A DNA stretch of 64,000 bases from Desulfarculia bacterium (GTDB lineage Bacteria; Desulfobacterota; Desulfarculia; G963662305): positions 2,013,620 through 2,077,619 of the forward strand of contig OY759352.1 of assembly GCA_963662305.1 (NCBI GenBank), given 5' to 3'. The notes beneath the pieces were generated by a model. It was not told where the DNA came from and ran no database searches. It saw nothing but the letters and a program-made list of their open reading frames with translations. Below are positions 28,686-58,574 of the stretch, one piece after another. The position numbers and the translations under genes were made by a program. Position 1 is the first letter of the stretch. Each line of letters starts with the position of its first letter.

Positions 28686-28687
28686 AA

Positions 28688-32805: not shown

Positions 32806-32807
32806 GC

Positions 32808-38981: not shown

Positions 38982-41090
38982 TCAGTAGTCGTAGCTTAAG
39001 CTCAGCCAGAAGGACCGGCCGGCCGAGGGGTAGCCGTTGAAGTCCTCGTACTGGTCGTCGCCCACGTTGCGGACCTCGAAATCAACGGTGGCGCCCCAGA
39101 GCTTGTAGGACAGGCCCACGTTGAACACGTTCTTGTCCTCGGCCGGGAGCAGGTTGGCCGTGTCGTAGTACATCCCCTTCTGGGCCTGGTACTCACCGTA
39201 GACCTTCAGGCCCTCCCACAGAAACTCCAGCCGGCAGAAGTATGACTGGTTGAACCGGCCGGGCAGTTCCTTGCCCTCAAAGGCTTTCACATCGCCGTGG
39301 TTGATGGCCTCCTGGAAGGTGGCGTTGCCGCTGAACCGGAAATACTCCAGGAAATCCACATTGAGCTGAAGCTCCACGCCCTGGATGTCGGCGTGGGCGA
39401 TGTTTTTGGAAGTGCCCACCCCGTAGGAGTCGTAGACCCGGATGATGATGTCGTCCACGTCGCTACGGAAATAGGCCGCCCGGGCGAAAAGACGGTCCAG
39501 GCAAAATACCTTGGGGGTCAGGCTGACCTCCAGCCCCACATCGAAGTTGATTCCGGACTCGGCCTCCAGATCCTTGTTGGCGGCCAGGAATCCGCGGTCG
39601 CCGAAGAGCTCGTAGAAGTTGGGCTCGCGGACGTACTGGGAAAAATTGGATTTAAGGGCCAGCCAGTCCAGGGCCTGAAATTTCAGCCCGATCTGGGGGT
39701 TGACGTACTGCTCCTGCCGCTTCCGGCCCTCCAAGACCGAACCCCAGGAGCTGACCGCGCTCTTGAGGTGGTCCTTAAGCCGGGTGTAGCGCAGGGCCGG
39801 GGTGATGGTCAGGCGCTCGTCCAGCAGGACCAGGCTGTCCTGAAGGGCCGCCGAAATGGAGGTCCGGTCGGAGGAGGGGGGGGTGTCCACCCCCAGCTTG
39901 TCCACGGGCAGATAATCCTCGTAGCGGATGTCGGCGCTGACCGCCGCAGTGTGGTAGCGGGTGGGCCATTCCACGAACAGGTTGGCCCCGTAGCGGTCGG
40001 TGTTGTAGATGTTGAGCTGCCTGCCCAGGCCGATGCCGTCGTGGCGGTCGTCGTACTCCTCCTCCTGCCACAGGTAATCCAGGCGCAGGGCCGCGTTGAG
40101 GTGGAGGCTGGTCAGGTTGTCCTTGCTCAGGCGCAGGGTGGAGATGTTGCGCTTGGTGGTCAGGGAGGCGTCGGTCTTGGTGGAGTTGTTCCAGGAGGAC
40201 AGGCCCTGATCCTTGTAAAAGAACTGGTTCATCCCGTCCAGGCGAAAGCCGCCTCCCAGGTCGTATCCGGCCTTGACCAGAACGTTGGCCTTGTCGTATT
40301 GGGCGTTGTTGCGGTCCTCGTAGCGGTCGTCGTCCTTGTTGAACTGGGTCCCGTTGTCGTTGAATATCTCAAAATCGTTGTCGCTGGCGGAATAGTCGGC
40401 GGAGATCAGATAATCGAACCGGCCCAGGTTGTGGTTAAGGTAGGCCGAGGCCTGGCGGGTGTTGAAGGAGCCGTAAGCTGCCGAGGCCGAGGCGTTGAGG
40501 CCCTCTTGGACCTTGAGGGTTTTGATGTTGACCACTCCGCCGATGGAGGCTTTGCTGAAATTGGCCGGGGTGGTCCCTCGGTATATCTCCAGGGATTCCA
40601 CGTCGCTCAAGGAGATGTTGCCCAGGTTGACCCCGCCCCCGGAACCGTCGTTGAGCAGGATGCCGTCCAGATAGATCATGACCTGGTCGCTGGAGGAACC
40701 CCGCAGAGACACGGTGGAGAACCCGCCCAGGCCGCCCTGCTGGCGGACCTGGACCCCGGCCTCCTTCTCGATCACGTCGGCCACGTTCTCCATCCGGCCC
40801 TGGAACTGGGACCGGTCGATGACCGTGAAGAAACCGGGCGAAACGGTCAGATCCACCTGTCCGGTCTCGATCTTTTCGGAGGTGACCTCCACCTCCTCCA
40901 GGACGGTCTCTTTTCCCTCGGACTCCTGTGAGACGTCTTCCTTGGAGCGGTCTTCCTCCGCTGTGATTTCAAGGGAATGGCCGCTTTCTCCGGCCCGGAC
41001 AGGACCGCCGGCACCCCCCCAGATCAGGAGGAATGAAAGGATAATGAACGGAATGCGCCGCCGAGATTTATCCAGAGTGGCCGTGATCAC
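38982..41090 (-). CDS. TonB-dependent outer-membrane receptor, BtuB-like (downstream of cobalamin riboswitch)
   Basis: GTG start at 41090 with AGGGGGAG upstream gives signal peptide VITATLDKSRRRIPFIILSFLLIWGGAGGPVRA; plug and barrel regions, C-terminal Y; the ORF-track ATG at 41153 lies inside the terminator palindrome. Confidence 0.85.
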   Translation of the reverse strand: MITATLDKSRRRIPFIILSFLLIWGGAGGPVRAGESGHSLEITAEEDRSKEDVSQESEGKETVLEEVEVTSEKIETGQVDLTVSPGFFTVIDRSQFQGRMENVADVIEKEAGVQVRQQGGLGGFSTVSLRGSSSDQVMIYLDGILLNDGSGGGVNLGNISLSDVESLEIYRGTTPANFSKASIGGVVNIKTLKVQEGLNASASAAYGSFNTRQASAYLNHNLGRFDYLISADYSASDNDFEIFNDNGTQFNKDDDRYEDRNNAQYDKANVLVKAGYDLGGGFRLDGMNQFFYKDQGLSSWNNSTKTDASLTTKRNISTLRLSKDNLTSLHLNAALRLDYLWQEEEYDDRHDGIGLGRQLNIYNTDRYGANLFVEWPTRYHTAAVSADIRYEDYLPVDKLGVDTPPSSDRTSISAALQDSLVLLDERLTITPALRYTRLKDHLKSAVSSWGSVLEGRKRQEQYVNPQIGLKFQALDWLALKSNFSQYVREPNFYELFGDRGFLAANKDLEAESGINFDVGLEVSLTPKVFCLDRLFARAAYFRSDVDDIIIRVYDSYGVGTSKNIAHADIQGVELQLNVDFLEYFRFSGNATFQEAINHGDVKAFEGKELPGRFNQSYFCRLEFLWEGLKVYGEYQAQKGMYYDTANLLPAEDKNVFNVGLSYKLWGATVDFEVRNVGDDQYEDFNGYPSAGRSFWLSLSYDY

Positions 41091-41134
41091 AGCTCCCCCT
41101 TTAATAGGCCGGCGGCCAGGGGCGGATCCGCTGG

Positions 41135-41174
41135 TAAAAAAAAGTCCCCCCATCCCTTAAGGGATGGGGGGACT
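41135..41174 (-). terminator. Intrinsic-terminator-like hairpin (perfect 32-nt palindrome followed by U8 on the minus strand); probable riboswitch expression platform
   Basis: 41143-41174 AGTCCCCCCATCCCTT/AAGGGATGGGGGGACT is a perfect palindrome; on the minus strand it is followed immediately by eight U; sits between the riboswitch aptamer and the receptor start codon. Confidence 0.55.
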
Positions 41175-41294
41175 GCACCCAGCTTACTTGGTCTCCCCAA
41201 AGGCGCTTTTAATTATCTAAACAGCGCCCGGCCTCGGTCCGGTCTTTCGCCGGCCTTGGTTATGAGCAGATGGCGGGTCTTCTGACTCCCGGAT

Positions 41295-41450
41295 CATCCT
41301 CCGGCCGCCCCTTCCCGCCGCCTTTTTTGACGGCAGTGGCTTATCGCGACCTTTGTCCCCGGTTACAGCGGCGGGACCGTGCCGGACTTGCACCGGCTTC
41401 CCCATTGAGCCTTACGGCACCGATCTACATTATGCCTCTACTAATAAAGG
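41295..41450 (-). promoter_or_regulatory. Cobalamin (AdoCbl) riboswitch aptamer
   Basis: Minus-strand RNA reads ...AAUGGGGAAGCCGGUGCAAGUCCGGCACGGUCCCGCCGCUGUAACCGGGGACAAAGGUCGCGAUAAGCCACUGCCGUCAAAAAAGGCGGCGGGAAGGGG..., matching the conserved cobalamin-riboswitch core (GGGAA..CCGGUG..AAGUCCGG..CCCGCC.CUGU...GCCACUG...GGGAAGG, i.e. the B12 box). Confidence 0.8.
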
Positions 41451-41924: not shown

Positions 41925-44090
41925 ATGCTGTTCAGACCTGCAGAAGATCAATCACGACATCCCAGATTCAGAAAAGGCGCCCTCCTTTTTATCGCCGTTT
42001 TCCTGATGGTGGTTGTTGTTGTAGGCCTGGAATTGAGCGTGAGGGCGGACCGATCACTGACCGACACCCTCTGTCGCCAGTTTAATGAGCAGCAGCTCAT
42101 AACAGCCCGAAACGCCAAGGACCTTATCGAGCGGGAGCTGGATTTGGTCAAAGGGGAGATCCGGATCGTTACCAGACAGGTATCTCTGGCCCCGGACAGA
42201 CCGGAGGACCTTAAGGCGATAATCGAGAACAGCATGCTGCGGATCGCCGGCGGAGGCGTCCGCAAGGTGGAGGTCATAGACCCCAAGGGAAAGAAGGCTC
42301 TTGTATACGCCCCCCACCGCCACGCTGTGGCTGAAAAAACGGCGGATGAATCCAGCCTGAGCTACCTAGACGTATCTTCCTTATCCAGCGGGAAAATATG
42401 GGTATCCCGGCCCAGGGTCGAGCACGGTCGGATAATCATGTTCATGGCTACCGCAGTGGAAGGGCCGGGGCCTCGGCTGCTGGTTTTTGAAATAAATGCC
42501 ACTTTGCTGGTCAGGCCTTTTTTGAAAAATATCCGCTCCGGCCAGGTTGGGTATGCCTGGCTGATCGACGAAAAGGGCCGGTTTATTTATCATTATGTCA
42601 CTGAATTCATAGGCAAGGAGTCCTTCCAGGCGCGCCGCGACCGGAACCCGGATATCTCTTACGAGGAGATCAACCGCATCCAGAAGGAAAAAATGGTTCA
42701 GGGGCGGGAAGGGACCGGGTATTACTATTCCGGTTGGCATCGAGGCACAACCGGACGGATCAAGAAACTGATCGCCTTTACTCCTGTCTCCATCTCCTCC
42801 TCGCCGTCCCAGAGATGGTCGGTCGCCGTGGTTTCGCCCTTCTACGACATGGAGAATGTGGTCAACCACCGGCACACCGGGCAATTTATCCTGGTTATTT
42901 TTTTCATATCGATAATCGTGATCTCATTCGGCACTCTCGTCTATTGGGAGATGCGATGGTCCCGTACTCTGTCCCGGCGGGTCGAGGTCCGCACCGAAGA
43001 GCTGCGGCGTTCGGAGGAGAGGTACCGCCTTCTTGTCGAAAGCGCGGAAGACTATATTTTTACCATCGACCTGGACAAAAAACTGCAGTCCATGAACAAC
43101 TACACCGCCAAGTTTTTCGGTGGAAGCCCCGAAGACCTGGTGGGAAAGGGGTTCGGCCATCTTTTCCCCGGCCCTGTTGCCGCCCGGCTGGAAAGAGAGG
43201 TGGACAAGGTCTACCTCTACGGCAAGAGCCGGCGCGACGAGTTCGAATTGGACGTCGAGGAGCATCAGATCTGGATCGATATCCATCTCATGCCCATAAA
43301 GGAAAAGGGGGGGGCGGTCACCCGGGTTTTGTGCATCGCCCGCGACATAACTGAAAGCAAGGAGCTCGCGAGGAACCTGATTAACACTGAAAAGCTGGCC
43401 TCCCTGGGCACTCTTGCCGCGGGGGTGGCCCACGAGGTCAACAACCCCCTGGGGGTCATCTTGGGCTTCTGCGATATCCTGATAAAAAACGCCCGTCCCG
43501 GCAGCCAGGAGTTGGAAGATTTGGAGATCATCCGTCGCCAGGGTGATCACTGCAAGGAGGTGGTCGCCAACCTGTTGACCTTTGCCCGCCAAGATGACCT
43601 GGAGGAGGAGTACTGCGATTTGAACGCCTGCCTGCTTGAGATTTTGCAGGTCTGCCGGCACAGCCTGGAGATGAACAGCATTGAATTGACGATAAAAACA
43701 GGGGAGGGCCTGCCTCCGGTTTTGGGCCATAAGCGAAAACTGCAACAGGTTTTCCTGAATTTGATGAACAATTCCCTGGCGGCCCTGGGAGAAGGCGGGG
43801 AGGTGACGGTTAAAACCGGATATGACCGCAGCAGCCGAAGGGTGACGGTTCTTTTCCGGGATAACGGCGAAGGCATCGCCCAAAAGGACCTCAAACGTAT
43901 TTTCGATCCTTTCTTCACCACCAAGTCCATCGGCGAGGGCACAGGCCTGGGATTGTTCGTTACCTACGGCATTATCAAACAATACGGCGGAACCATAGAG
44001 TGCCTCAGTTCAGGCCTGGACCAGCCGGAAAAACCCAGCGGGACCCAGTTTATTATCAAACTCAAACCAAGGACGGCAGGACAGCCATGA
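41925..44090 (+). CDS. Sensor histidine kinase (periplasmic sensor domain, PAS, HisKA, HATPase_c)
   Basis: H-box AAGVAHEVNNPLGV; N, G1, G2 boxes (NLMNNSLAAL, DNGEGI, GEGTGLGL); N-terminal TM plus extracytoplasmic domain. Confidence 0.85.
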   Translation: MLFRPAEDQSRHPRFRKGALLFIAVFLMVVVVVGLELSVRADRSLTDTLCRQFNEQQLITARNAKDLIERELDLVKGEIRIVTRQVSLAPDRPEDLKAIIENSMLRIAGGGVRKVEVIDPKGKKALVYAPHRHAVAEKTADESSLSYLDVSSLSSGKIWVSRPRVEHGRIIMFMATAVEGPGPRLLVFEINATLLVRPFLKNIRSGQVGYAWLIDEKGRFIYHYVTEFIGKESFQARRDRNPDISYEEINRIQKEKMVQGREGTGYYYSGWHRGTTGRIKKLIAFTPVSISSSPSQRWSVAVVSPFYDMENVVNHRHTGQFILVIFFISIIVISFGTLVYWEMRWSRTLSRRVEVRTEELRRSEERYRLLVESAEDYIFTIDLDKKLQSMNNYTAKFFGGSPEDLVGKGFGHLFPGPVAARLEREVDKVYLYGKSRRDEFELDVEEHQIWIDIHLMPIKEKGGAVTRVLCIARDITESKELARNLINTEKLASLGTLAAGVAHEVNNPLGVILGFCDILIKNARPGSQELEDLEIIRRQGDHCKEVVANLLTFARQDDLEEEYCDLNACLLEILQVCRHSLEMNSIELTIKTGEGLPPVLGHKRKLQQVFLNLMNNSLAALGEGGEVTVKTGYDRSSRRVTVLFRDNGEGIAQKDLKRIFDPFFTTKSIGEGTGLGLFVTYGIIKQYGGTIECLSSGLDQPEKPSGTQFIIKLKPRTAGQP

Positions 44091-45511
44091 CCGGCAGGAT
44101 TTTAGTTATCGATGATGAGAAGGACATGCTCTTGCTGCTGAGCCGGATTATCACCGAAGAGGGCGCATACCAGGTAGTCACCGAATCGGATCCGCTCAGG
44201 GCGATGGCCCTGTTCAAGGAGCAGCCCTTCGACCTGGTTCTCACTGATCTGAAGATGCCCAAAATGAACGGCATCGAAGTCCTGGAGCAGGTCAAGCGGA
44301 CCAGCCCTGACGTATCCGTGATCATCCTGACCGCCTTTGCCACCATTGACAACGCGGTGGCCGCAGTTCACAAGGGTGCCTACGACTATCTGACCAAGCC
44401 TTTTCAAAGGGAGCGGCTGCTCCTGACCATTGAGAAGGTGATGGCCTTGCAGGAGCTGGTCCGGGAGAACATGACCCTCCGCCAGGCCCTGGCCAAAAAG
44501 GAAGAACAGACGCCCATAGTCGGCTCCTCGCCTTTTGTAAAAGATATGGAGCAGCGCATCCGTCAGGTGGGCCCGACCATGGCCACGGTCCTTATCACCG
44601 GCCCCAGCGGCACCGGAAAGGAGCTGGTCGCCCGGGCGGTCCATGAACACAGCCAGCGCCGGAACAACAAATTTGTGACGGTCAACTGTACGGCTCTGCC
44701 GGCCGGTGTTCTGGAGAGCGAACTTTTCGGCCACGTCAAGGGAGCCTTTACCGGCGCGTTAAGAGATAAAAGGGGGTTGGTGGAAGAGGCGCACGGGGGC
44801 AGCCTTTTCCTGGACGAGATCGGAGATTTGAGCCCCATGATCCAGACCACCCTGCTGCGGCTTCTTCAGGAAGGCGAGTATAAGCCGGTGGGCAGCGTGG
44901 TTACCAAAAAGGCGGACGTCCGTTTCATTGCCGCCACCAATCACAATCTCAAGCAGGACATCAAGGATAAGAATTTCCGGGAGGACCTCTACTACCGCCT
45001 GAACGTGATCCACCTTGAGATGTCGCCGCTGACCGAGCGAAGACGGGACATTCCCCTGTTGGCCTATCATTTTCTGAAAAAATACAGTCAGCTGAATAAA
45101 AAGCAGATCCAGGCCATCTCCCCGGCCACCCTTCAGGTGCTGATGAACCTGGACTACCCCGGTAATATCAGGGAGCTGGAGAACATTATCGAGCGCGGGG
45201 TCATTTTTTGCCAAACCAACACCCTGGGTCTGGCCGATTTGAGGCTGGAGGATCAGGACCCCATTTTTTCCGAACTGCGGGACGACATCTTCCGAATGTC
45301 CTTCAAGGAGGCCAAGGAGAGAGTCGTCCAGGCCTTTCACTATCGCTACATCGGCTATCTGCTGGCCGAAACCGGCGGCAACATCTCCCAGGCCGCGGAG
45401 ATGGCCGGGATTCAACGCCAATATCTCCATCGGCTGATGAAGGATACCGGCATAAGCACGGAAGAGTATAAGAAGGGCTTTCAACAGCCCGACAGAGAAA
45501 CCGAGGATTAG
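44087..45511 (+). CDS. Sigma-54-dependent response regulator (NtrC family: REC, AAA+ sigma-54 activator, HTH)
   Basis: ATG 44087 overlaps kinase stop (ATGA); REC Asp in LVLTDLKMP; Walker A GPSGTGKE; GAFTGA sigma-54 contact motif; C-terminal Fis-type HTH. Confidence 0.9.
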   Translation: MTGRILVIDDEKDMLLLLSRIITEEGAYQVVTESDPLRAMALFKEQPFDLVLTDLKMPKMNGIEVLEQVKRTSPDVSVIILTAFATIDNAVAAVHKGAYDYLTKPFQRERLLLTIEKVMALQELVRENMTLRQALAKKEEQTPIVGSSPFVKDMEQRIRQVGPTMATVLITGPSGTGKELVARAVHEHSQRRNNKFVTVNCTALPAGVLESELFGHVKGAFTGALRDKRGLVEEAHGGSLFLDEIGDLSPMIQTTLLRLLQEGEYKPVGSVVTKKADVRFIAATNHNLKQDIKDKNFREDLYYRLNVIHLEMSPLTERRRDIPLLAYHFLKKYSQLNKKQIQAISPATLQVLMNLDYPGNIRELENIIERGVIFCQTNTLGLADLRLEDQDPIFSELRDDIFRMSFKEAKERVVQAFHYRYIGYLLAETGGNISQAAEMAGIQRQYLHRLMKDTGISTEEYKKGFQQPDRETED

Positions 45512-47304: not shown

Positions 47305-47848
47305 ATCACCACACCCCGCCGCTTACAGATAAATTTGAAGGAAGCAACGAGGGTGCCAGTTTACACGGCCCAAGAACAGGTGCGGCGATGTTGTCCTAAC
47401 TATGGGTTGTCATAGCTCATTATCAGTGGGCCTCTCTGAAATTTCCCTGCTCCCCGGAACCCGAGGGCCTCTCCCCCTCGGAGGATGGGGCTATATCTGT
47501 CAACGGGAGGTGACAGATTTGGGGGGAGGTGTCCACAAAATAGTTCCACTCCAGATCCGATCCTTCCCCGGCGATTGGAAATTGTTGCGAATTAACTAAT
47601 AAAAAAATGGGGTTAAGACACACCCTCGACTTGTTCAAATTGGCACAATCTTTGATTCACCAATCGATCAAGCAAAAGCGATGGTACTTAAGCGGGGATC
47701 AATGATTTCCGACAAGACCAAGGAAGGTGGGTGAGAAAGTTAATCCTATTATTGAAAGTTCGACTCGGCCTAATTATGGAGTTAAACCGTCCGCAAAATA
47801 AGCCCTCATTAATCAAAAGAACGAGGGGCAAAAAAGGAGTGGAAAATT

Positions 47849-48895
47849 ATGGCATCACCGAAAAAGGTTCGAGCTGCCGGATGGGAGGTAGCCCAGGAGT
47901 TGGAAATAAAAAAGCGAACCATTTTCGAGCGCCTTATCCCGGAATGGCGGCATGTACGGGCGGCCCTCGGCGGCATAGCCGTCTTTTTTATTGTGTTCCT
48001 GATCGGCATCTGGCTGGCTGGGAACCCATTTGAGGCAACCCAGCGTATTGCCTCAAAAGCCGTTGTCAACGCCGGTTTGGCCGGCACAAACGACTGGACC
48101 ATCTTCTGGGGCGTAATGTTTATGGCCATGTTCTTCGAGTTCATGGACGCTTCGGCCGGGATGGGGTTCGGCACCGCCCTGACGCCTCTTCTGCTGGTTG
48201 TTGGCTTTGATCCTAAACAGATCGTGCCGGTGGTTATGGTTCAGCAGGGAGTGGCCGGCCTGGTCGGAGCCTTCCTCCACCGGGAATTCGAAAACGTGGA
48301 GTGGAAATTTAAACCCATGTCCGAAACGGTCAAGCTGTGGATGATCATCGGACTGGTCGGTTGCCTGGCCGTGACGTTTTCCATTACCGCGGTCTATGCC
48401 TACCTTAAGGTGGCCAAGATCTGGATTAAACTGTATGTGGCCGTTCTGCTGCTGATGATGGGCGTCATCTCGCTGATTCAGGCCCGCAAGGAGCGTCCCT
48501 ACAGACCTTGGAAGATGCTCGGGTTCGCCGCCCTGGCCGGATTCAATAAAGGCGTGGGCGGCGGCGGTTACGGCCCCGTGGTCACCGTGGGCGGGCTGAT
48601 CTCCGGCGTACCCATCAAGAGCATGCTGGCCGTGACGGCCATCAGCGAGGGTACGGTCAGCACCTTTGCCATATTGGTCTGGCTGGCCCTGCTCACCTCG
48701 GGGGTAACCATAGACTACGTCTTGTTGCCCACGTTCATGCTGGCGACCATGTTCTCGGCTATTGCCGCGCCCTATGCCACCAGGGTTTTCCCCGAAAAAC
48801 TGTGGAAGGTGGTGGTTCCGGGCTACTGTGTGGTGGTGGCGGCCATCTGTTTCTACAAGATTGTCCCGGACGTTATTTCTAAGCTGGGCGGTTGA
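47849..48895 (+). CDS. TauE/SafE (DUF81) family membrane transporter (sulfite/anion exporter type)
   Basis: 348 aa; two-repeat polytopic membrane protein with Gly-rich TM segments; AAGGAG RBS upstream of ATG. Confidence 0.7.
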   Translation: MASPKKVRAAGWEVAQELEIKKRTIFERLIPEWRHVRAALGGIAVFFIVFLIGIWLAGNPFEATQRIASKAVVNAGLAGTNDWTIFWGVMFMAMFFEFMDASAGMGFGTALTPLLLVVGFDPKQIVPVVMVQQGVAGLVGAFLHREFENVEWKFKPMSETVKLWMIIGLVGCLAVTFSITAVYAYLKVAKIWIKLYVAVLLLMMGVISLIQARKERPYRPWKMLGFAALAGFNKGVGGGGYGPVVTVGGLISGVPIKSMLAVTAISEGTVSTFAILVWLALLTSGVTIDYVLLPTFMLATMFSAIAAPYATRVFPEKLWKVVVPGYCVVVAAICFYKIVPDVISKLGG

Positions 48896-49096: not shown

Positions 49097-49645
49097 ATGG
49101 AAAAACGGAGGCTTGTTATGTGGAATCGGGGTACACCTTACCCGGCGTCCCGGGAGGAGAAGGCCCTGAACGGGTATATCAATCGGCGGGTCCGCGGATT
49201 CGGCCTGACCCTGATCGTCATGGGCCTGAGTTTCGGGTTGTACTACCTGGGCCTGTTCGGGGGAGTATCAGGCCCGCTGACCCCCGAAAATATAGGAGAT
49301 CTCCTGGTCGGCCTGGGGGTGACCAGGTTCCATCTGGCCATCGCCCTGTCAGGTGCGTTTGTCTGCGCCCTGACCTGGAACTGGGTTTTTAACCTGATCT
49401 GCCGGGCCGCGGGCCGCCGCCTGACCTGCGCCAAAACCCTGAATAAAAGCGGGAGAATCTGCGGCGCCGCGGTCAAGACCGTGAAACTTAAGGGCGAGAC
49501 ATCGGACCGGCCGGTCAGGCAGTACGTCTGCCAACAGGGGCATAAACTGAGCACGGCCCATTTCCACCCGCTGGAAAAGGGTGTGGTCGGCCACACCGTC
49601 TGGTTGGTTACGCTGGCTTTTTTCCTGATTTTCCTGGCGGTTTGA
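49097..49645 (+). CDS. Hypothetical membrane protein
   Basis: 182 aa; three hydrophobic segments, Cys-containing loop (CAKTLNKSGRICGAA...CQQGH); no family recognised. Confidence 0.4.
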   Translation: MEKRRLVMWNRGTPYPASREEKALNGYINRRVRGFGLTLIVMGLSFGLYYLGLFGGVSGPLTPENIGDLLVGLGVTRFHLAIALSGAFVCALTWNWVFNLICRAAGRRLTCAKTLNKSGRICGAAVKTVKLKGETSDRPVRQYVCQQGHKLSTAHFHPLEKGVVGHTVWLVTLAFFLIFLAV

Positions 49646-49764
49646 GGAGAGGCTGTTGAAACCGCCACAATAAACCGGCCGTGAGGCGGCGGAGGGATTT
49701 AGGATTTTTGAGTCGATAATGGGATCTGTTTTTGGAAAATCAACTATCCGCAAAAGGGGGCGGC

Positions 49765-50607
49765 ATGAGTTCCGAAATCCGGGTCCTGCTGGTCGATGAC
49801 GAGGAACGGTTCGTCACCAACATGGCCCGCCTTTTGGCCGCCCGCGGATTTAAGGTCTCCATTGCCGGAGACGGGGTGGAGGCCGTGGAACAATACCGTC
49901 TCTCCGGCGGGATGGATGTTGTGGTCATGGATGTCAACATGCCCCGTCTGGACGGCCTTCAGGCCCTGAAGCGGATAAGGGCCCAAGATCCCGAAGCCCA
50001 GGTCATAATCCTGACCGGGCACGGCAGCACCGAGGACGGCATCAAGGCCATCCGCCTGGGGGCCTTCGACTATCTGGCCAAGCCCTGTCCCCTGGAGGCG
50101 TTGGTCGACAAAATCCGTCAGGCCGATGAGGTTGAGCGGATCAGGGAAAAGCCGGTGCTCTGGACCGGCAACAAGGTCAAGGCCGTTCTTGACCCTGAAT
50201 TTCTGAGGCTGCCGCCGGAAAGCGGAGCGGCCCAGGGTCTGGCTTTGCTGGCCGAGGGAAAAGACCCGGATCCCGGCCCGGTCCTGTTCGTAACGGATGA
50301 CCGGAACGTTCCACTGGGTTGCCTCAACCGCCAGGACCTGCTCCGCGAAGCCTGGAAAAATCATCCGGGCCGGCAGATCACCTGGGACGAACTTTGCCGC
50401 TGTCCGGAGAACTTGCCCGAGACCAGGCTGGACAGAATTATGCAAAGGGATATCGTAACCGCCGATCCGGAAGAGGGGCTGCCGGAGGTGGCTCACGCCA
50501 TGATGGCCCACAATCTGAGCACAATACCTGTAGTCGAAGAGGGCCGGATGATCGGTCAAGTCCATCTTAAGGATATTCTTGCCTATATCGAGAGGCAGAC
50601 CGAATAG
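49765..50607 (+). CDS. Response regulator with receiver domain and C-terminal CBS pair
   Basis: Start at MSSEIRVLLVDDEE (ATG 49765, AAAGGGGG upstream); REC motifs (DVVVMDVNMP, ILTGHG, KPC); CBS segments at C-terminus. Confidence 0.75.
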   Translation: MSSEIRVLLVDDEERFVTNMARLLAARGFKVSIAGDGVEAVEQYRLSGGMDVVVMDVNMPRLDGLQALKRIRAQDPEAQVIILTGHGSTEDGIKAIRLGAFDYLAKPCPLEALVDKIRQADEVERIREKPVLWTGNKVKAVLDPEFLRLPPESGAAQGLALLAEGKDPDPGPVLFVTDDRNVPLGCLNRQDLLREAWKNHPGRQITWDELCRCPENLPETRLDRIMQRDIVTADPEEGLPEVAHAMMAHNLSTIPVVEEGRMIGQVHLKDILAYIERQTE

Positions 50608-50625: not shown

Positions 50626-52266
50626 ATGCCTGAAATCTCCGGTTCACCCTTGCTTCGCTGGAAAAACGACTACCCCTATTTCCGGCAGCTTCGCCGCCGC
50701 CTGATTCTGATCCTCGCGGCGGTGGTGGCCGTCCCCCTGCTGGTCCTGGCCGGAGCAGCCTTTTTCCACCAATACTCAACAATCAACAGCCGGGCCGAAC
50801 AGTCGCTCCAGAGGACGGCCGAGGAGCTTAAGGAGAAGATCGACCTTCACCTGAACGGACAATTGGCTCTCCTGAGGCTGACCGCTTCCTGCCTGGAACA
50901 ACCGGAACCGCTCCAGCCGGGCCGGATTAAGGCGGAACTCATCCGGTTGAGAGGCTCAGATCCGTTCCTCGGCCTGGCAGTCTATGATCAACAGGGCCGC
51001 CGTCTGGCCGGCTCAGGCTCCTCCAGAGAGTTTGAAGGGCCCGAGACCCTGCCCCGGCTTCCAACCGGCTTCCTCGGCGCCAGTTGCGGCTTTGGAGAGA
51101 CCACTGCCGATTCCGAGGGCTCGGCCCTTTACTACACCGCCTTCTGCCGCATCAGGGGAGAGGAGGGCCGTATCCTCCGGGCCGTTTTCGGGGTGGGCCC
51201 CATCCTGAAATTATTGTCCGGTCCTGATTCCGACCCGGCTGAAACATTCCTGGTGGGCCGCACCGGAGTCTTTCGGAACAGACCCAAGGCGTCCCCGTCT
51301 CCACCGGCCTCCAGCCCCCCTCCGGAACGAAGGTCGAGCGGCGCAGACGGTTACCTGGAGGCTTCAATACAACTGGATACCGCTCCTTGGCAGTGTCTGG
51401 TTCGGCGGCCCAGGGAATCGCTGAACCGGGAATTGAGCCGAATCCGGAACATGGGCCTGATTATCCTACTTCCGTTGCTGGTTCTGGCCGTGGCCGCCGC
51501 CATCCTGACCGTCAACTATCTGGTGGGCCGACTGGAGGCCGACCACCGCCTGATCAAGAACCTGGACCGGCAGCTCAAAAGGGCGGGCCGTCTGGCCAAC
51601 TCGGTCCATCTGTCCCACGGTCCGGTTCACGAACTGAAAAATACCCTGGTCAATATTGATACCACCGTAACCTGTCTGCAGGACGCTTTGGACCAGGCCG
51701 ACAGCCAACTGGGGGGCGAAGAGGCTTTTTTCCGGAAGATCCGGGAGGAACTGAACTACGGGCAGGTCATGGTCGAAAGACTTCACGGCAACATAAGAGT
51801 CTCGAACCTGGAATCCATTGTCAGCGAATTGGATCTGAACTCCCTGTTAAAAGATCTGGTCGAGCTCTTGGGCCTGGAACTCTACCTGAACAGGATCGTG
51901 GTGGAAACGTCCTTTCAGGACGGGCTGCCCTTGATTTTGGGCGACCCGGTTCAGATCCGTCAGGTTTTCATGAATATCCTGCTCAACGCGGTTTCGGCCG
52001 TGGATTCGGACGGTAGGATCACGATCCTTACCTCCGCCGAGAATGATGATATAGTGGTGACGGTCATTGATGACGGACCCGGCATACCGACCGGGCAAGA
52101 GGATCTGATTTTCGATCCCCTGTTCACGACCAGAAGGGGCAGCAGCGGAATGGGGCTGTCCATCTGCGTCAGCATCCTGGAAAAGATGGGCGGCCGGATC
52201 CAGGTCCGCAACGATCCCGAGCGGGGAGCATCTTTTACTGTCTGGCTGCCCCGCAGGATGAAATAG
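50626..52266 (+). CDS. Sensor histidine kinase
   Basis: Two TM segments flanking a periplasmic domain; HisKA H in HELKNTL; HATPase_c boxes (NILLNAVSA, DDGPGI, GMGLS). Confidence 0.8.
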   Translation: MPEISGSPLLRWKNDYPYFRQLRRRLILILAAVVAVPLLVLAGAAFFHQYSTINSRAEQSLQRTAEELKEKIDLHLNGQLALLRLTASCLEQPEPLQPGRIKAELIRLRGSDPFLGLAVYDQQGRRLAGSGSSREFEGPETLPRLPTGFLGASCGFGETTADSEGSALYYTAFCRIRGEEGRILRAVFGVGPILKLLSGPDSDPAETFLVGRTGVFRNRPKASPSPPASSPPPERRSSGADGYLEASIQLDTAPWQCLVRRPRESLNRELSRIRNMGLIILLPLLVLAVAAAILTVNYLVGRLEADHRLIKNLDRQLKRAGRLANSVHLSHGPVHELKNTLVNIDTTVTCLQDALDQADSQLGGEEAFFRKIREELNYGQVMVERLHGNIRVSNLESIVSELDLNSLLKDLVELLGLELYLNRIVVETSFQDGLPLILGDPVQIRQVFMNILLNAVSAVDSDGRITILTSAENDDIVVTVIDDGPGIPTGQEDLIFDPLFTTRRGSSGMGLSICVSILEKMGGRIQVRNDPERGASFTVWLPRRMK

Positions 52267-52299: not shown

Positions 52300-54639
52300 A
52301 TGTTGAAGCGGGAGCACATAAAGAGAGCCATCGACGCCATCTCGGCCCGTAATCGCCAAGTCGGCTACACCCTCAACGATATGCTGGGATCCGGAAGCAT
52401 CGACGTTCTGCCGGATTCCGACCCGGCCGCCTCACCCCGGGAGTTCGCTTTTCTGTTCAACCACGAGCCTGTTCATGTGCCTGTTTTCCGGTACTTTCAC
52501 GAGGGCACCACCCCCTTGGAGGAACGGCTCCTGGTCAAGTATGGGGAGTTGGTCAGGCGGCAGGAGTACCTGACCGGAAGCCAGCCCTACAACTTTCGCC
52601 GGGCCGCGGAGGATATTCACAAGGCCGGGCTCCGCTTTTTGGTCGAGTACGAGATCTCCCTCGCCGCGGAAAGGCTGGCCCGCAAGGGTCAGAAGAACGG
52701 TTTGCCGTATCGCGATTTGGCGGGGCGCCTTGAAAGTATCCTGGATCCGGGCTCCGCATCTCTGCTGCCCCAGACCGAAAATGATCCCGGAGTGCTTTTC
52801 CGCGGCGTAGTGGATAAGGACACCCCGGCCTATTTTCTTAACTTCCCCTTTTGCCTTGATTCCCTGCAGCAGGCGGCCGATCTTAATCTTGAATTCTTCG
52901 GTATCCGGTTTCTCTTGGATTGTCTGGTGAACGGTTTGGCCGAAACCGTCTTTTGCTGCCTGGTGAACCGGAAGATCGTGGGCCTGGTCCAGTCCGGACC
53001 CAAGACGAGTCTTTCCGGCCGCGACCTGGAGATCAAGTATATCGCCACCAGCCGGGGCAAGCGTACCCAAGCGGAGCTGCCGGCCCTTAAACCCCCCAAG
53101 GGCTGCGGCACGGTGCTGGTGGCCGGGGCCTGGATGCTGTGGAAAGGCCGGTTCGGCGGGAGAGGGGAATTGGTGCTGGATTCGGAGATAGGCTCCATCC
53201 GGTTCTACCAATCCATCGGTTTTCGGAAAAAGCAGGCTTACGGCTACACGCTCAAATCGCCCCAAGGCTACCTTCTGCGGAACATCCTGGCCATGACTGA
53301 ACACTTGCCTCAGGTGGAGGAGGGGGTGGTCCGCTCGGTCAAGGAGCTGATCAAAGGCCAGGTCAAGCTTTTGCGGAAAAAGCCGAAAGGCGGCAAGGAC
53401 CTCAAACAGCGCGAAACGGCCGTCGGGTTTATCCGGGACTGTCTGGCCACCGAACAGCACAGGGAACTGGGCCGGACCGCCATCGGGCTGCTGGCCCGAT
53501 ACCGGACCGAAATTCCCGAGGCCGACCAGTTGTTGGACCAGGCCATTGCCAGCGGTCTGGTCCAAATTCCGGTAAAGCTGAAAAAGGATTGGAACCCGGT
53601 CCTGACAGTCTTTGACGATCGCTACGCCCGCCATCTGGAGGGGATTTTTCATCTGGAGAGCGCCAAGCGGGCCAAGGCCATGCGGACCATCCTGGAGGAC
53701 GAGACCCTCACGGGCAGGTGGTCGGCTCTGGTTCCGCGCCTGGCCCGGGTGGAGGAGCTGGCCTATGTCCACACCGCCGAGCACATAGAGTTCATCGCTT
53801 CCACAGAGGGGCGGCCCCTGAGCTCCATAGACCTGGATACCCAGACCAGTGAGAGAACTTACGAGGTGGCCCGGTTGGCTGTGGGCGGGGTCTTTTGTCT
53901 GCTGGATGAGATCTGGTCCGGGGTCTCCCCCCGCGGATTCGCCTTTGTCAGGCCGCCGGGGCACCATGCCGAACCGAACAAGGCCATGGGTTACTGCATC
54001 TTCAACAACGCGGCCCTGGGAGCCAGGTACCTTCAGGAAAAACACGGTCTGGACAGAATCATGATCGTGGACATAGACGCCCATCACGGCAACGGCACCC
54101 AGTCGGCTTTTTACGAGACCGACCGGGTGCTGTATTTCTCCATGCACCAGTTTCCGTTCTATCCCGGCACGGGCGGTCTGGGCGAGTCCGGGTCCGGCCG
54201 GGGCGAGGGCTTCACCGTCAACGTGCCCCTGCCCACGGGAGAGACGGATGCCACCTTCGCCGATATCATCAACTATCTGGTCCGCCTCCTGGCCCGGCAA
54301 TATGGACCTGAGATAATTTTGGTCTCCTGCGGATTCGACCTCTATCACCACGACCCCAGCAGCCGGATGAGGGCCACCCCGGAAGGCTACGGCATGATGG
54401 CCAGCCTGTTGATAGAGATAGCCGAAGAGGTCTGCGGGGGACGGATTGCCTTTATTATGGAGGGCGGCTACAGCCTGACCGGCATCCGCGAGTGCGGTCT
54501 TCGGGTCATGAGGGAGCTGTGCGGTCTCAAGACTTTTGATCCCGCCAGGATGGAGAAGATGAAAAAACCGAACGGCCGCAGGATTCCGGCGCTCAATAAA
54601 ATCCTGGAGGTCCAAAAAGCCTATTGGACAATCCAGTAA
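52300..54639 (+). CDS. Fusion protein: N-terminal domain of unknown function (possibly GNAT-like) + C-terminal histone-deacetylase/acetoin-utilization (HDAC) family domain
   Basis: C-terminal HDAC hallmarks (PPGHHAE, CIFNNAA, DIDAHHGNGTQ, FYPGTGG); N-terminal ~400 aa contains GNAT-like strand SIRFYQSIGF. Confidence 0.7.
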   Translation: MLKREHIKRAIDAISARNRQVGYTLNDMLGSGSIDVLPDSDPAASPREFAFLFNHEPVHVPVFRYFHEGTTPLEERLLVKYGELVRRQEYLTGSQPYNFRRAAEDIHKAGLRFLVEYEISLAAERLARKGQKNGLPYRDLAGRLESILDPGSASLLPQTENDPGVLFRGVVDKDTPAYFLNFPFCLDSLQQAADLNLEFFGIRFLLDCLVNGLAETVFCCLVNRKIVGLVQSGPKTSLSGRDLEIKYIATSRGKRTQAELPALKPPKGCGTVLVAGAWMLWKGRFGGRGELVLDSEIGSIRFYQSIGFRKKQAYGYTLKSPQGYLLRNILAMTEHLPQVEEGVVRSVKELIKGQVKLLRKKPKGGKDLKQRETAVGFIRDCLATEQHRELGRTAIGLLARYRTEIPEADQLLDQAIASGLVQIPVKLKKDWNPVLTVFDDRYARHLEGIFHLESAKRAKAMRTILEDETLTGRWSALVPRLARVEELAYVHTAEHIEFIASTEGRPLSSIDLDTQTSERTYEVARLAVGGVFCLLDEIWSGVSPRGFAFVRPPGHHAEPNKAMGYCIFNNAALGARYLQEKHGLDRIMIVDIDAHHGNGTQSAFYETDRVLYFSMHQFPFYPGTGGLGESGSGRGEGFTVNVPLPTGETDATFADIINYLVRLLARQYGPEIILVSCGFDLYHHDPSSRMRATPEGYGMMASLLIEIAEEVCGGRIAFIMEGGYSLTGIRECGLRVMRELCGLKTFDPARMEKMKKPNGRRIPALNKILEVQKAYWTIQ

Positions 54640-55079
54640 CCAGGAAGTGTCAACCAGTTGTTGACAAAATCCGGTGGGCCGCCTCCGTCCATACCGGAAA
54701 AGCCTTTTGGACCTCGAAACAGGCCGGCCCCCGGCTTGTTGAACCGGGACCTTTTGCGGCCTCGGCATGGCCTCCTAAACCGGTCCATAAAGTCAACCCC
54801 TGTTAATCATAACCTTTTTCCGCTCAATGGACCATCCGTCAAACTAATCCGGGTTTCTGACCCAGAATGTTTTCAAGGATGGAAAACCATCCGGGATTAC
54901 CGAGTTGTGGAATCTGACGGTGGGGTGGACGGGCTGGCATGCTTGTTGAATTGTTATTTATCAAAGGGCTTCGAAGCCGAATCCGGGCAGAGCCGAAAGC
55001 GAGGTTCGGGGCTTACGGCCGACAGAACCAGGGAACAGACCCAGTAATCAACCCGGACATATATTGATCGGCGAGGGAC

Positions 55080-56864
55080 ATGGATACAAATCAGGACAGC
55101 CGGGATTACCGGGCCGACAACGAGTCGATGCCGGAGCGGCAGGCGAGCTACCGGCGCCTCTTCCGCAGGTTTATCTTGTACACCATGGTCTGCTCCGTGG
55201 TCCCCATCCTGCTGGTGGGGTGGGCCATCAAAATCAACTATACTAATTTTTCCATAGATCGCATGACCCGCAGTTTTATGTCTCAGATAGACCACCACCG
55301 CAAAGTCATCCAGATGTTCATCAACGAGTGCCGGTCCAAACTCCTTCTGATCGCCGCCACCCATAAGATGGAGGACCTGGTGGCCGGCGGCAAACTGGGG
55401 GAAGTGTTCGAGATGATCAACCGGGATCACATGTCGATCACCGATCTGGGGGTGATCGACGACCAGGGCAATCATCTCAATTATGTGGGCCCCTATGACC
55501 TGATCGACAGCAACTATTCCCAGGCCCTCTGGTTTAAGGAGGTCATGGCCGAGGGGATCTATATCAGCGATATGTTCATGGGATTCCGGCAGGAGCCTCA
55601 TTTTATAGTGGCCGTCACCAGAACCGAAGAGGGCCGGAAGTGGATTCTCAGGGCCACTATCGACACCGATTTCTTTCGCTCTCTGGTGGAGAATGTCAAA
55701 ATCGGTCGGACCGGTGAGGTCTATCTGGTCAACCGGGATGGTATTTTCCAGACCAGCCCCAGATTCAACGGCAAAATCATGGGCAAAGCCATATTCGAGG
55801 TACCGCCCAGGCAGCCCGGGGTGTCCATCCGGGTCGCTCCCGCCGTCGTCTCCGACGGAAACCAAAAGATTCCGTCCAAAATCGTCTGCCAAACCTGGCT
55901 GGACGAGCCCAATTGGATGCTCATGGTCCAGCAGGACTACAAGGAGGCCTTTGACGACGTCAACCACGCCAACAAGGCCGCCCTCATCTTCCTATACCTC
56001 TCGGCCGCGGCGATTCTGATCGTCACCATTCTTATCACCCGGCACATGATCGCCATTATCAGGCGACGCGATTTGGAGATGGACCAGTTGAACCGCCAGC
56101 TGCTCCAGGCCGGCAAAATGGCCTCCATCGGCGAATTGTCGGCCGGAGTGGCTCATGAGATTAACAACCCCCTGGCCATTGTCCTGACGGAGAGGCAGAT
56201 CCTGCTGGATGCCTTCCAGGGGAGGCTGGACGACGACGAATTGGAGGAGCAATTCCTGGACTCCATGAACCAGATCGATATCCAGGTTCAACGCTGCAAG
56301 AGGATCACCCACAATCTGCTCAGATTTGCCCGGAGGACCGAATCGGTCATCGAACCGGTGGACGTCAATGCGTTTCTCCAGGAGGTGGCCGAATTGATGG
56401 AACGGGAGGCCCGGGCCAACGGAATAGCATTTGTGACCGACCTGGACGAAGATATTCCTTTTATCAACTCAGACCCGTCCCAGCTTCAACAGGTTTTTCT
56501 AAATCTTATCACCAACGCCATAGATGCCCAGAACCAGAAGATGGACGGGATGATCAAGATAACCACCCGGGCCGAGCCCGGAGAAAAGGGCCTCTGGCTG
56601 ACTATCGCGGATACCGGCTCCGGGATCAGCCCCGAAAACCTGTCCAAAATTTTCGATCCGTTTTTTACCACCAAGCCGGTGGGCAAGGGGACCGGTCTGG
56701 GTCTGTCCATCTGCTACAGCATCATCAAGCGGCTGGGCGGGAAAATATCGGTAACCAGCGAGGTGGGCCAAGGCACTGAATTCGTAATATTTCTTCCCGA
56801 GGAGCTGCCTGAGGGCGCCTCCGGGGGCGTGGCCGAAGCCGAAACAGCGCACAATTTTCAGTAA
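55080..56864 (+). CDS. Sensor histidine kinase with extracytoplasmic Cache-like sensor domain
   Basis: H-box [15 protein letters not shown]; HATPase_c boxes ([23 protein letters not shown]). Confidence 0.85.
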
Positions 56865-56876
56865 TGGAGGGCAACC

Positions 56877-57347
56877 ATGAAATTAGCCAAAGTTCTCTTT
56901 GTGGACGATGAAACCAGATATGCCGAAAACATGGCCAAGCTTCTGGGCAACCGCGGCTATCGGGTGGTTACGGCCAACAGCGGCGACCAGGCTTTGCAGA
57001 GGCTGGAGGAGGAGGACTTCGACATCATTGTTCTGGATTTGAAAATGCCCGGACTGGACGGCATCGCCACCCTGAAAGAGATCAACGAACGAGAGCTGCT
57101 GACCGAGACCTTGATCCTGACCGGCCACGGTTCCATTGATACGGCTTTGGAGGCGACCAAGATAGGAGCTTTCGATTATCTGACCAAACCGTGCGAGGTT
57201 CAGGATCTGGTTGATAAAATCGAGGAAGCCTGGAATAAGAAGAGCGAGGTGGAACAGGCCGAGCGGAATGAAAAGATAAAGAAGATTATCGAATCCCCCT
57301 CGGCCGTCTTCTCCATGATGAAGAAACCGGGCTCCAAAAAAGAATAA
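56877..57347 (+). CDS. Single-domain response regulator (REC)
   Basis: KVLFVDDE, IIVLDLKMPGLDG, ILTGHG, KPC motifs; 156 aa. Confidence 0.85.
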   Translation: MKLAKVLFVDDETRYAENMAKLLGNRGYRVVTANSGDQALQRLEEEDFDIIVLDLKMPGLDGIATLKEINERELLTETLILTGHGSIDTALEATKIGAFDYLTKPCEVQDLVDKIEEAWNKKSEVEQAERNEKIKKIIESPSAVFSMMKKPGSKKE

Positions 57348-57671
57348 GGCTATCGGCCTCGGGCGGAAGTTCGGATGTCTTTCGGAAATCGGAGGGCTTC
57401 AACCGGTTCCGGGGAAAAAAGGACTCTCTGAGCCGGATCTCCGCCTTTATCTGTGGTGATGGCTCCAATTATGTTTTAACTCGGGTGCCGGAGGCGGCAC
57501 CCCGGCCTCATGTTTCGCTTTTTTAGAAAGGCCATTTGAGCGCTCGCTCTGAACCGGGCGCTCCGAAATGGGTTCGGCCCATAACTTGGGGCCGGGGTTT
57601 GGCACCCGGCCCCGGGTGCGGTTTCCAGGGGCGCAGGCCCTATCAGGCCCGCTCCCGTGGCTTTGCGGCGG

Positions 57672-58523
57672 CTAGACGCTCTTGCCTGCGCCGGCCTTGC
57701 CCTTGCGGACCAGAGCCCGCTCCGCTTGGGGCAGAGGCGGCGGCACGGGCGCTCCGGAGATCTGCTGCACCGCGGCGAAACGGGGCGGGCAGGCCTCGAA
57801 ACAGGTCCCGCACTTGATGCACCTGTCCTGGTCGATCACGTGGATCTGGTTCTTTCCTCCCTCGATGGCTTCCACCGGGCAGCGCCGGGCGCAGATGCCG
57901 CAGGCCTGACACTTCTCCGGGGCGATGTGATAGGAGGTCACCTCGCGAAACAGTTCCTCCATCTCCTCCAGGGTGAACAGGCCGTCATACTCGTCCTTGG
58001 AGGTGAGGCGGCGCTCCAGCTTCTCCCTTTTGGCGATCTTGATGTAGGGCACCAGCTTGATGACTTCCTTTATCTTCTCCTTCAACTCCCGGCGGTCCAG
58101 CCCCTCTTTTTGCCCCAGAGGACCCAGCTCCCTGACCTCCTTGGTGAAATCGTCCACCACCTCACTGAACAGGATGCCGTCCCCGGAGGACATGAAGGCG
58201 ATGCGCAACCGGTCCTGGTTCAGGCCCAGATGCTCCAGGATTCTTTTGGCCAAAAGGACCATGGTCAGGGCATGGTAGTTGCCGTGGGTCACGTAGTTGC
58301 ACTCGTTGAGCTTGCACCCGCCCACGAAAACCCCGTCCATTCCGTTCAGGAAAGCCCGGAGCACGAACTCCAGATCCACCCGGCCGGAACACATGACCCG
58401 GATGATCCTTATCTCACTGGTATACTGTAGTCTGGAAACTCCAGCCATATCGGCAGCGCCGTACGCTCACCAATGGCACAGAAAGCCCAGGATCCGGGGC
58501 TTGAAACTCTTTGCCGCGCTCAT
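57672..58523 (-). CDS. MvhD-like (methyl-viologen-reducing hydrogenase delta subunit) domain fused to 2x[4Fe-4S] ferredoxin; selenoprotein with in-frame UGA at 58467-58469
   Basis: ATG 58523 preceded by AAGGAGGTG; translation MSAAKSFKPRILGFLCHW-U-AYGAADMAGVSRLQY...: TGA sits where MvhD homologs have the second Cys of the CxWC motif; downstream CQACGICARRCP and CIKCGTCFEACP clusters. Confidence 0.75.
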
Positions 58524-58574
58524 ATGCCTTCACCTCCTTCCCCGAAAATCAGATCCCCCTTAGGGGGCGTTTTC

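Follow-up and report, generated by a model that had tools for sequence, protein, structure and literature searches.

The described system that comes closest in function to the locus reported here is AcuA/AcuB/AcuC with AcsA of Bacillus subtilis, in which a GNAT-type acetyltransferase (the writer), a zinc-dependent deacetylase of the HDAC family (the eraser) and a CBS-domain protein are encoded together. Likewise, in Pat (YfiQ)/CobB an acetyl-CoA-dependent GNAT switches acetyl-CoA synthetase (Acs) off at its catalytic lysine, and a dedicated deacetylase restores the activity. Bifunctional enzymes that both write and erase a modification are also known, such as GlnE, GlnD, Rel/SpoT, HPr kinase/phosphorylase, AceK and the GGDEF-EAL proteins; they hold opposing activities in one polypeptide, whose balance is set by regulators, as we propose here for a different chemistry, and no acetylation equivalent was found in the limited literature searched. 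The gene in question lies in a 64,000-nucleotide stretch (the window) of contig OY759352.1 from a Desulfarculia bacterium, where the open reading frame (ORF) 52300-54639 on the plus strand encodes a protein of 779 residues in which a short linker connects a very divergent GNAT-fold module with a complete class-II zinc deacetylase. The gene stands among those of histidine kinases and response regulators, and we propose, with a probability of about one half, that its product is a writer/eraser pair for the reversible N-epsilon-lysine acetylation of proteins under the control of this relay.

The ORF opens with an ATG, which is taken as the right start because the N-terminus MLKREHIK fits the family consensus MIKREHIKQ, and it closes with the stop codon at 54637-54639. 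Public data hold a 100% identical protein of 779 residues (P0056) as well as around 40 independent full-length fused homologues of 753-855 residues, and for that reason the fusion cannot be regarded as an accident of assembly. The linker is found at the point where the genes of split relatives have their stop/start overlap, and the protein looks functional, since it keeps 95 of the 105 columns conserved at ≥90% in the GNAT family alignment and 164/169 of those in the alignment of fused sequences. It could be argued that a lost stop codon or an assembly frameshift has joined what are two genes in reality, given that the relatives found in the first search were mostly split and that the pair lies in pieces in the closest relative of the window (locus L001, 3851-8128; 71-91% protein identity across the cluster). 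In that locus the genes for the kinase, the GNAT module, the HDAC and the response regulator with REC and CBS domains (REC-CBS) are each broken, probably by sequencing-error frameshifts and not by biology, and the assembly is considered error-rich because many genes, neighbors included, are frameshifted. Moreover, of 45 non-redundant pairs 19 are in-frame fusions, and the fused lineages are the most diverse ones at the 50% identity level, so we rejected the artefact as extremely improbable. The 778-residue ORF on the opposite strand (52432-54768) was dismissed as a shadow of the GC-rich fusion gene. The original prediction that one polypeptide combines an HDAC-family deacetylase with an N-terminal GNAT-like region is therefore supported by the PF00850 match, the predicted GNAT fold and the reality of the fusion, and we are nearly certain of this architecture, i.e., a GNAT fold plus an HDAC of the active type in one protein.

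The C-terminal half, first recognized as a Zn-dependent deacetylase by the motifs PPGHHAE (residues 552-558, nucleotides 53953-53973) and DIDAHHGNG, was confirmed as such by a match to PF00850 (Hist_deacetyl) over residues 451-738 (295.7 bits, cut-off 27.9; E = 4.9e-88). Its closest solved relatives are the CD1 and CD2 domains of HDAC6, HdaH of FB188, PA3774 and the PrpH/DmhA hydrolases, and the PDB ranking placed HDAC6 and HdaH (E of about 1e-54 to 1e-59) ahead of HDAC10 (about 1e-47) and ApaH (3e-38). Across 43 fused homologues the catalytic set H555/H556, D593/H595, D680 and Y724 is invariant, as are RPPGHH, D-x-D-x-H, GFD and EGGY in their alignment. The pattern RPPXHH/XGGY is the foot-pocket signature of the acetyl-specific cluster 1 deacetylases (Graf et al. 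2024, PMC11532494), and the window protein, with RPPGHH, EGGY and its nearest relatives in cluster 1, falls in this HdaH/HDAC6-type group. The gatekeeper position is occupied by Leu in at least 90% of the relatives, as in HDAC6 CD2 (DPLGG), and not by the polyamine-type Glu found in HDAC10 or the PIS of bacterial ApaH. Taken together, a complete class-II zinc deacetylase, of the acetyl-specific type as judged by motif, is well supported. A specific assignment as AcuC-like was ruled out, the domain being cluster 1 and HdaH/HDAC6-like, and that database label is apparently generic; a polyamine deacetylase is made less likely by both the motifs and the PDB ranking.

The sequence signal for a GNAT in the N-terminal half is weak but consistent. 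Among the relatives of the module, PF13673 was matched in 36/44 and PF13508 in 23/44, in all cases below threshold (best E = 4e-4), while GNATs accounted for eight of the 11 weak PDB matches of the full profile and for 12/12 of those obtained with a profile of the GNAT core, and every GNAT match fell on a single stretch, that of motifs A and B. An AlphaFold2 model of the N-terminal region, built from a 44-sequence alignment, reached a mean predicted local distance difference test score (pLDDT) of 84 and a predicted template modeling score (pTM) of 0.85, and the top 50 structures retrieved with it by Foldseek were GNATs only (E down to 1.6e-4, target-normalized template modeling score of 0.5-0.6), led by the protein N-terminal acetyltransferases Ard1 of archaea, Naa50 and Naa30. 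In the model, residues ~160-335 are predicted to adopt the GNAT superfamily fold, a mixed beta-sheet in the order b1-a1-a2-b2-b3-b4-a3-b5-a4-b6, and this core makes up about 175 of the ~420 N-terminal residues. The loop of motif A is also found before helix a3, where the family has [KR]-G-[VC]-G-[TA] and the window protein PKGCGT (GNAT standard, Q/R-x-x-G-x-G/A), and it aligns with the RTGVGT loop of 8osp_A. G268, G270, E296, F302, Y303, G307 and F308 are invariant in the module and D294 is nearly so; D294/E296 and Tyr303 stand at the general base and general acid positions of many GNATs.

These results allow the earlier view of the N-terminal half to be refined. The segment SIRFYQSIGF (residues 299-308, nucleotides 53194-53223), which had been compared with the acetyl-CoA-binding strand, does belong to a GNAT, but it represents motif B, running from helix alpha4 to strand beta6, and not the pyrophosphate-binding loop. 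In the same way, the GNAT assignment had been called weak, which is true of the sequence signal but not of the fold and the motif A loop, both recovered in the model and the alignments, and the structure-based search that had been put forward as decisive returned an acetyltransferase fold. Apart from its core, the module comprises a 160-residue N-terminal part, in which the first ~35 residues rank with the best-conserved ones of the whole protein, and, as a further unusual feature, an 85-residue C-terminal helical bundle; neither residues 1-160 nor 336-420 gave a fold or family match, the GNAT core dominating the whole-model searches. A word-indexed search with the N-terminal region yielded 55 homologues, and a profile searched against 1.84 billion representative proteins yielded only 104 clusters at E ≤0.001, many of them fragments, whose full-length members have either about 430 or about 750-810 residues. 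Judging from these searches, the N-terminal region is a compact orphan family.

The distribution of the module was scanned with one genome per species, which gave 43 loci, and gene order was surveyed by tblastn of 49 loci plus the window, with five contigs at gene level. Nearly all loci are labeled Desulfobacterales, Desulfobacteraceae, Desulfatibacillum, Desulfosarcina, Desulfococcaceae or "Deltaproteobacteria," and the Hdr/Mvh-type genes beside the cluster in the window suit a host of this kind. The order observed is TauE permease, u182 (a small membrane protein), REC-CBS, a Cache-domain histidine kinase (HK1), GNAT module and HDAC, often with a PAS kinase and an NtrC-type activator syntenic further upstream, and, in part of the loci, two further gene pairs downstream, a dCache kinase (HK2) with a REC-only regulator (REC2), and an AMP-forming acetyl-CoA synthetase with an MFS transporter. 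In 36 of the 37 informative loci the GNAT gene is immediately preceded by REC-CBS and a kinase, and the HDAC comes after the GNAT gene in every locus with downstream sequence; the GNAT module and the HDAC are thus an obligate pair, either fused or encoded by neighboring genes. The single exception upstream is a decayed second copy (L047, 8400-10625, from the same genome as L046) that has an intact GNAT gene but lacks REC-CBS and retains the kinase and the HDAC (residues 6-75) in fragments only. The two genes share 10-35 nucleotides or stand a few bases apart in most split loci; in six the spacing is 56-393 nucleotides, and L001 is fragmented. In a rough, midpoint-rooted neighbor-joining tree of the GNAT module, the deepest branches are those of fused forms, which reappear within the split clade, and therefore fusion or fission has happened more than once.

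HK2 and REC2 follow the pair in 17/17 fused loci with enough sequence, and 13 split loci have the synthetase downstream on the same strand, nine of them directly and four after HK2-REC2. This linked synthetase carries a canonical PKTRSGKIMRR, whose lysine is the classical acetylation site of acetyl-CoA synthetase (PMC11532494). In four loci, a second HDAC-family gene, 33-34% identical, is found in convergent orientation after the synthetase-MFS pair, always on the minus strand (L002 12393-13163, L014 15797-16444, L018 12095-12742 and L026 17748-18395). In three others the GNAT and HDAC genes share one frame and only a TGA stands between them (L012 5004-5006, L015 9417-9419 and L029 10290-10292); no support was seen for recoding, read-through or selenocysteine at these codons, and in other split loci the stop is TAG or the frames overlap.

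As the original prediction had counted, the cluster in the window holds three histidine kinases and three response regulators (Table 1), the latter being one each of the NtrC, REC-CBS and REC-only types. The hallmarks of two-component proteins are present in HK1 and HK2 (H-box/HisKA and HATPase_c) and in REC-CBS and REC2 (acidic pocket, phosphorylatable Asp, Thr and Lys), and the CBS protein has a REC and a CBS part without an ACT domain. The cluster ends at REC2, because Hdr/Mvh-type genes on the minus strand converge on it. HK1 of the window is divergent within its group: its orthologues have a dCache_1 domain and resemble HK2 of the window more than its HK1, in which there is a Pro/Ser-rich low-complexity stretch and only HATPase_c was detected by domain search.

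In the mechanism envisaged, the GNAT half would transfer an acetyl group from acetyl-CoA to a protein lysine, as suggested by the conservation of its motifs, including the acidic beta5 residues and Tyr303, and by its nearest structural neighbors, which are protein acetyltransferases, and the HDAC half would remove that same group, as obligate pairing and fusion lead us to infer. REC-CBS and REC2 would dock on the enzyme and decide which of its halves prevails, so that a futile cycle would be avoided; since both have intact phospho-acceptor pockets and no DNA-binding output, they must signal by protein contact, and they are proposed to act on the writer/eraser balance because the two enzymes are the only non-signaling proteins of the conserved core. 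In Bacillus, AcuC is bound and inhibited by the CBS+ACT protein AcuB in a manner that depends on AMP or diadenosine tetraphosphate (Ap4A) (PMC13121692, PMC13039410), and this precedent of a CBS protein that controls an HDAC-type deacetylase makes control of the enzyme by REC-CBS plausible; by analogy with AcuB, its CBS pair may add an adenine-nucleotide or energy input. Through their periplasmic Cache domains the kinases may respond to an external ligand, for which acetate or some other carboxylate is plausible. The preferred target would be the PKTRSGKIMRR lysine of the acetyl-CoA synthetase of the AMP-forming type, given its adjacency in 13 loci and the precedents of Pat/CobB and AcuA/AcuC. 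In this full form, a single-polypeptide writer/eraser of lysine acetylation whose direction is set by a His-Asp phosphorelay through regulators that dock on the enzyme, the mechanism is tentative, and it is equally doubtful that Acs is the main target in the organism of the window.

Several observations weigh against protein acetylation under relay control, and some of them are shared with other explanations. On the side of the writer, residues 1-440 gave no Pfam or NCBIfam match and reached no curated GNAT threshold, an insert of ~18 low-confidence residues (251-268) separates beta4 from the P-loop, and the usual Asn of motif B is replaced by Gly. Such extreme divergence, below every Pfam GNAT threshold, together with the insert next to the P-loop and the sizeable additional modules that flank the core, would also suit a non-catalytic module that serves the deacetylase as a regulatory subunit, either sensing acetyl-CoA or recruiting substrate; to a deacetylase, sensing of the product pool would be useful. 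This is unlikely, however, in view of the fact that conservation goes beyond the CoA-binding glycines to D294/E296 and Tyr303, presumably catalytic residues. On the side of the eraser, the gatekeeper of the window protein is Ser687 and not Leu, few natural substrates are known for bacterial HdaH enzymes, and some relatives hydrolyze propanil or dimethoate. If the pair acted on a small molecule (polyamine, amino acid or xenobiotic amide) in a sensed metabolic or detoxification pathway, it would find company in the acetylpolyamine, propanil and dimethoate hydrolases of cluster 1 and in the many GNATs that act on small amines, and the linkage of the TauE permease, and of the MFS transporter in some loci, would be accounted for. 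Nevertheless, the HDAC is closer to HDAC6/HdaH than to HDAC10 or ApaH, it has RPPGHH and not the RPAGHH of xenobiotic hydrolases, it lacks the PEG/PIS polyamine motif, and the GNAT structures nearest to the module are those of protein acetyltransferases; moreover, one polypeptide that both acetylated and deacetylated a given metabolite would run a futile cycle of no evident purpose, and we consider a small-molecule substrate quite improbable.

The choice of target is a further weak point of the proposed acetylation switch. No acetyl-CoA synthetase gene was found anywhere in the 64-kb window, and none of the nine informative fused loci, the window included, has one within at least 6.5 kb downstream, so the assignment of Acs as a target depends on the split relatives. 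It is rather unlikely, but would agree with this absence, that the enzyme acts on the neighboring response regulators or kinases and so feeds the acetyl-CoA status into the phosphorelay, instead of being controlled by it. REC-CBS and its kinase are the only universally linked genes, and acetylation of CheY, RcsB and PhoP is established (PMC8556138); on the other hand, the synthetase is directly downstream of the pair in split loci and Acs is the classical paradigm, no conserved candidate lysine was identified in the signaling proteins, and regulators with no other obvious output fit better with an action on the enzyme. The full-length model (pLDDT 89.2, pTM 0.61) does not fix the position of one active site relative to the other and consequently gives no help in choosing between the lysine-acetylation switch and its alternatives. 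In addition, all 43 loci come from metagenome-assembled genomes.

Although AcuABC is the closest system functionally, with the module adjoining an AMP-forming acetyl-CoA synthetase with an acetylatable RSGK motif in 13 related loci, the likeness is one of analogy and not of orthology, and the locus departs from AcuABC in each of its defining components. The GNAT module, of about 430 residues with two extra modules, has no detectable sequence relation to AcuA; the deacetylase is cluster 1/class IIb-like, whereas AcuC is class I-like and was assigned to cluster 2c in B. subtilis (PMC11532494); AcuB combines a CBS pair with ACT, whereas the CBS protein of the window has REC where AcuB has ACT, with a histidine kinase as its partner; and in the window writer and eraser are fused and no acs gene is present. 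There is also no sequence signal for orthology with Pat. Unlike Pat and the other classes of lysine acetyltransferases, the protein has no NDP-forming acyl-CoA synthetase-like, cyclic AMP-binding or ACT domain, and its eraser is a covalently attached zinc hydrolase and not a sirtuin such as CobB. The classification of bacterial lysine acetyltransferases (classes I-III, types I-V), as summarized in PMC11254643, has no type with a deacetylase domain. With HdaH and HDAC6 the family shares all catalytic residues, RPPGHH, EGGY and the Leu-type gatekeeper, but it differs from them in being fused to, or encoded beside, a 430-residue GNAT module within a two-component operon, and the window protein in its gatekeeper Ser. 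The two-component system CrbS/CrbR, which is likewise tied to acetate assimilation via acetyl-CoA synthetase, controls acsA by the action of CrbR on transcription (PMC5436829), while REC-CBS and REC2 have no DNA-binding domain and the genes linked to them encode modifying enzymes. No description of a GNAT-deacetylase fusion, of the orphan GNAT family or of a Desulfobacterales acetylation system was found in the limited literature searched. This suggests that, while a gene pair for writing and erasing acetylation is known in kind, the fusion, the orphan GNAT family and the embedding in a phosphorelay are new here.

The regulation of opposing bacterial acetylation enzymes is poorly understood, and the first mechanism for an HDAC-type eraser, that of AcuB on AcuC, was published in 2026. 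If our proposal is true, this would be the first single-polypeptide writer/eraser of lysine acetylation and a new type of lysine acetyltransferase outside the current classification, and it would link two-component sensing, adenine-nucleotide status (via the CBS pair) and acetyl-CoA metabolism post-translationally in acetate-oxidizing sulfate reducers. The catalogue of bacterial lysine acetyltransferases would thereby gain a family that was missed by sequence models, acetylation would be under direct control of a phosphorelay, and there would be a handle on the control of acetate and acetyl-CoA in Desulfobacterales, key complete oxidizers of anoxic sediments. The family offers a natural experiment: the coupling of writer and eraser is obligate, often to the point of fusion, and both are connected with a pair of sensor kinases and a pair of response regulators for which no other output is visible. 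It also makes possible the re-annotation of ~40 fused proteins labeled "histone deacetylase / AcuC-like" or "hypothetical," and of stand-alone "hypothetical proteins" of 430 residues.

Table 1. Features of the fusion gene and of the signaling cluster around it (positions in the window; residues are those of the 779-residue protein unless a neighboring protein is named).
Feature	Position	Strand	Remark
Whole ORF, GNAT-module/HDAC fusion, 779 residues	52300-54639	+	
N-terminal module, residues 1-160: helices and beta-hairpin, long helix 99-133	52300-52779	+	predicted model
GNAT-fold core, residues 161-335: b1-a1-a2-b2-b3-b4-(18-residue insert)-a3-b5-a4-b6-b7	52780-53304	+	
PKGCGT, residues 266-271: GNAT motif A pyrophosphate-binding loop	53095-53112	+	
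LDSEIGSIRFYQSIGF, residues 293-308: strand b5 and motif B	53176-53223	+	includes SIRFYQSIGF
C-terminal helical bundle of the GNAT module, residues 336-420	53305-53559	+	predicted model
Linker, residues 421-432	53560-53595	+	low pLDDT
Class-II zinc deacetylase domain, residues 433-779	53596-54636	+	cluster 1, HdaH/HDAC6-like
RPPGHH, residues 551-556: tandem catalytic His and RPP foot-pocket motif	53950-53967	+	invariant
DIDAHHGNG, residues 591-599: zinc ligands Asp and His	54070-54096	+	
CGFD, residues 677-680: third zinc ligand Asp680	54328-54339	+	gatekeeper position S687 follows
EGGY, residues 721-724: catalytic Tyr724	54460-54471	+	
PAS histidine kinase	41925-44090	+	
NtrC-type sigma-54 activator	44000-45511	+	
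TauE-family permease	47849-48895	+	usually upstream of the module in relatives
u182, small membrane protein without family match	49097-49645	+	usually upstream of the module
REC-CBS response regulator	49732-50607	+	no DNA-binding domain; D-D 22-23, D67, T95, K117
HK1, two transmembrane segments around a periplasmic sensor, HATPase_c	50626-52266	+	H-box VHELKNTL 334-341
HK2, dCache_1 + HisKA + HATPase_c	55080-56864	+	
REC2, single-domain, REC only	56877-57347	+	DD10-11, D54, T82, K104; last gene of the plus-strand cluster

Within the cluster, u182 has about three hydrophobic segments and a Cys-rich stretch, and its gene lies between those of TauE and REC-CBS in most related loci. A search for a sigma-54 promoter shared by the operon gave a site count not above chance, and in relatives such sites are elsewhere (after REC2 or before HK2). 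An exact TGGCAC-N5-TTGCT at 47343-47358 (-) and a site with one mismatch at 47641-47656 (+), both of the -24/-12 type, are found in the 840-nucleotide gap between a divergent gene resembling Na/Ca exchangers and the TauE gene, near the NtrC-type activator. No RNA elements were found in the intergenic regions around the fusion gene, and the sole Rfam match of the window is an unrelated cobalamin riboswitch (RF00174, 109.7 bits, 41255-41440 (-)), which lies upstream of a receptor gene at 38982-41153.

On the downstream side, the converging minus-strand genes (57672-63923) comprise a MvhD/FlpD-ferredoxin gene at 57672-58448, an HdrA-like gene at 58575-61409 and a CCG-domain HdrD-like gene at 61976-63256; the plus-strand ORF at 57657-58430 was rejected as a shadow ORF. 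The upstream part of the window from 10000 to 41440 has a GC content of 62-70% and holds CobN-type chelatases (18143-21886 and 24963-28943, minus strand), a ChlI/D-like AAA+VWA protein (30763-33012, minus strand), TonB-dependent receptors and an ABC ATPase. A 97-nucleotide tRNA-Arg(gcg) called by ARAGORN at 32505-32601 (-) falls within the AAA+VWA coding sequence and is probably a false positive. The first ~8 kb of the window have a GC content of 33-45%, compared with 55-70% elsewhere, and the interval 1-10242 includes an nSTAND1 NTPase with HEAT repeats (4052-6901, minus strand), a radical-SAM-like gene (6891-8120, minus strand) and a phage-type integrase (9049-10242, plus strand), and looks like an integrated island that is possibly related to defense.

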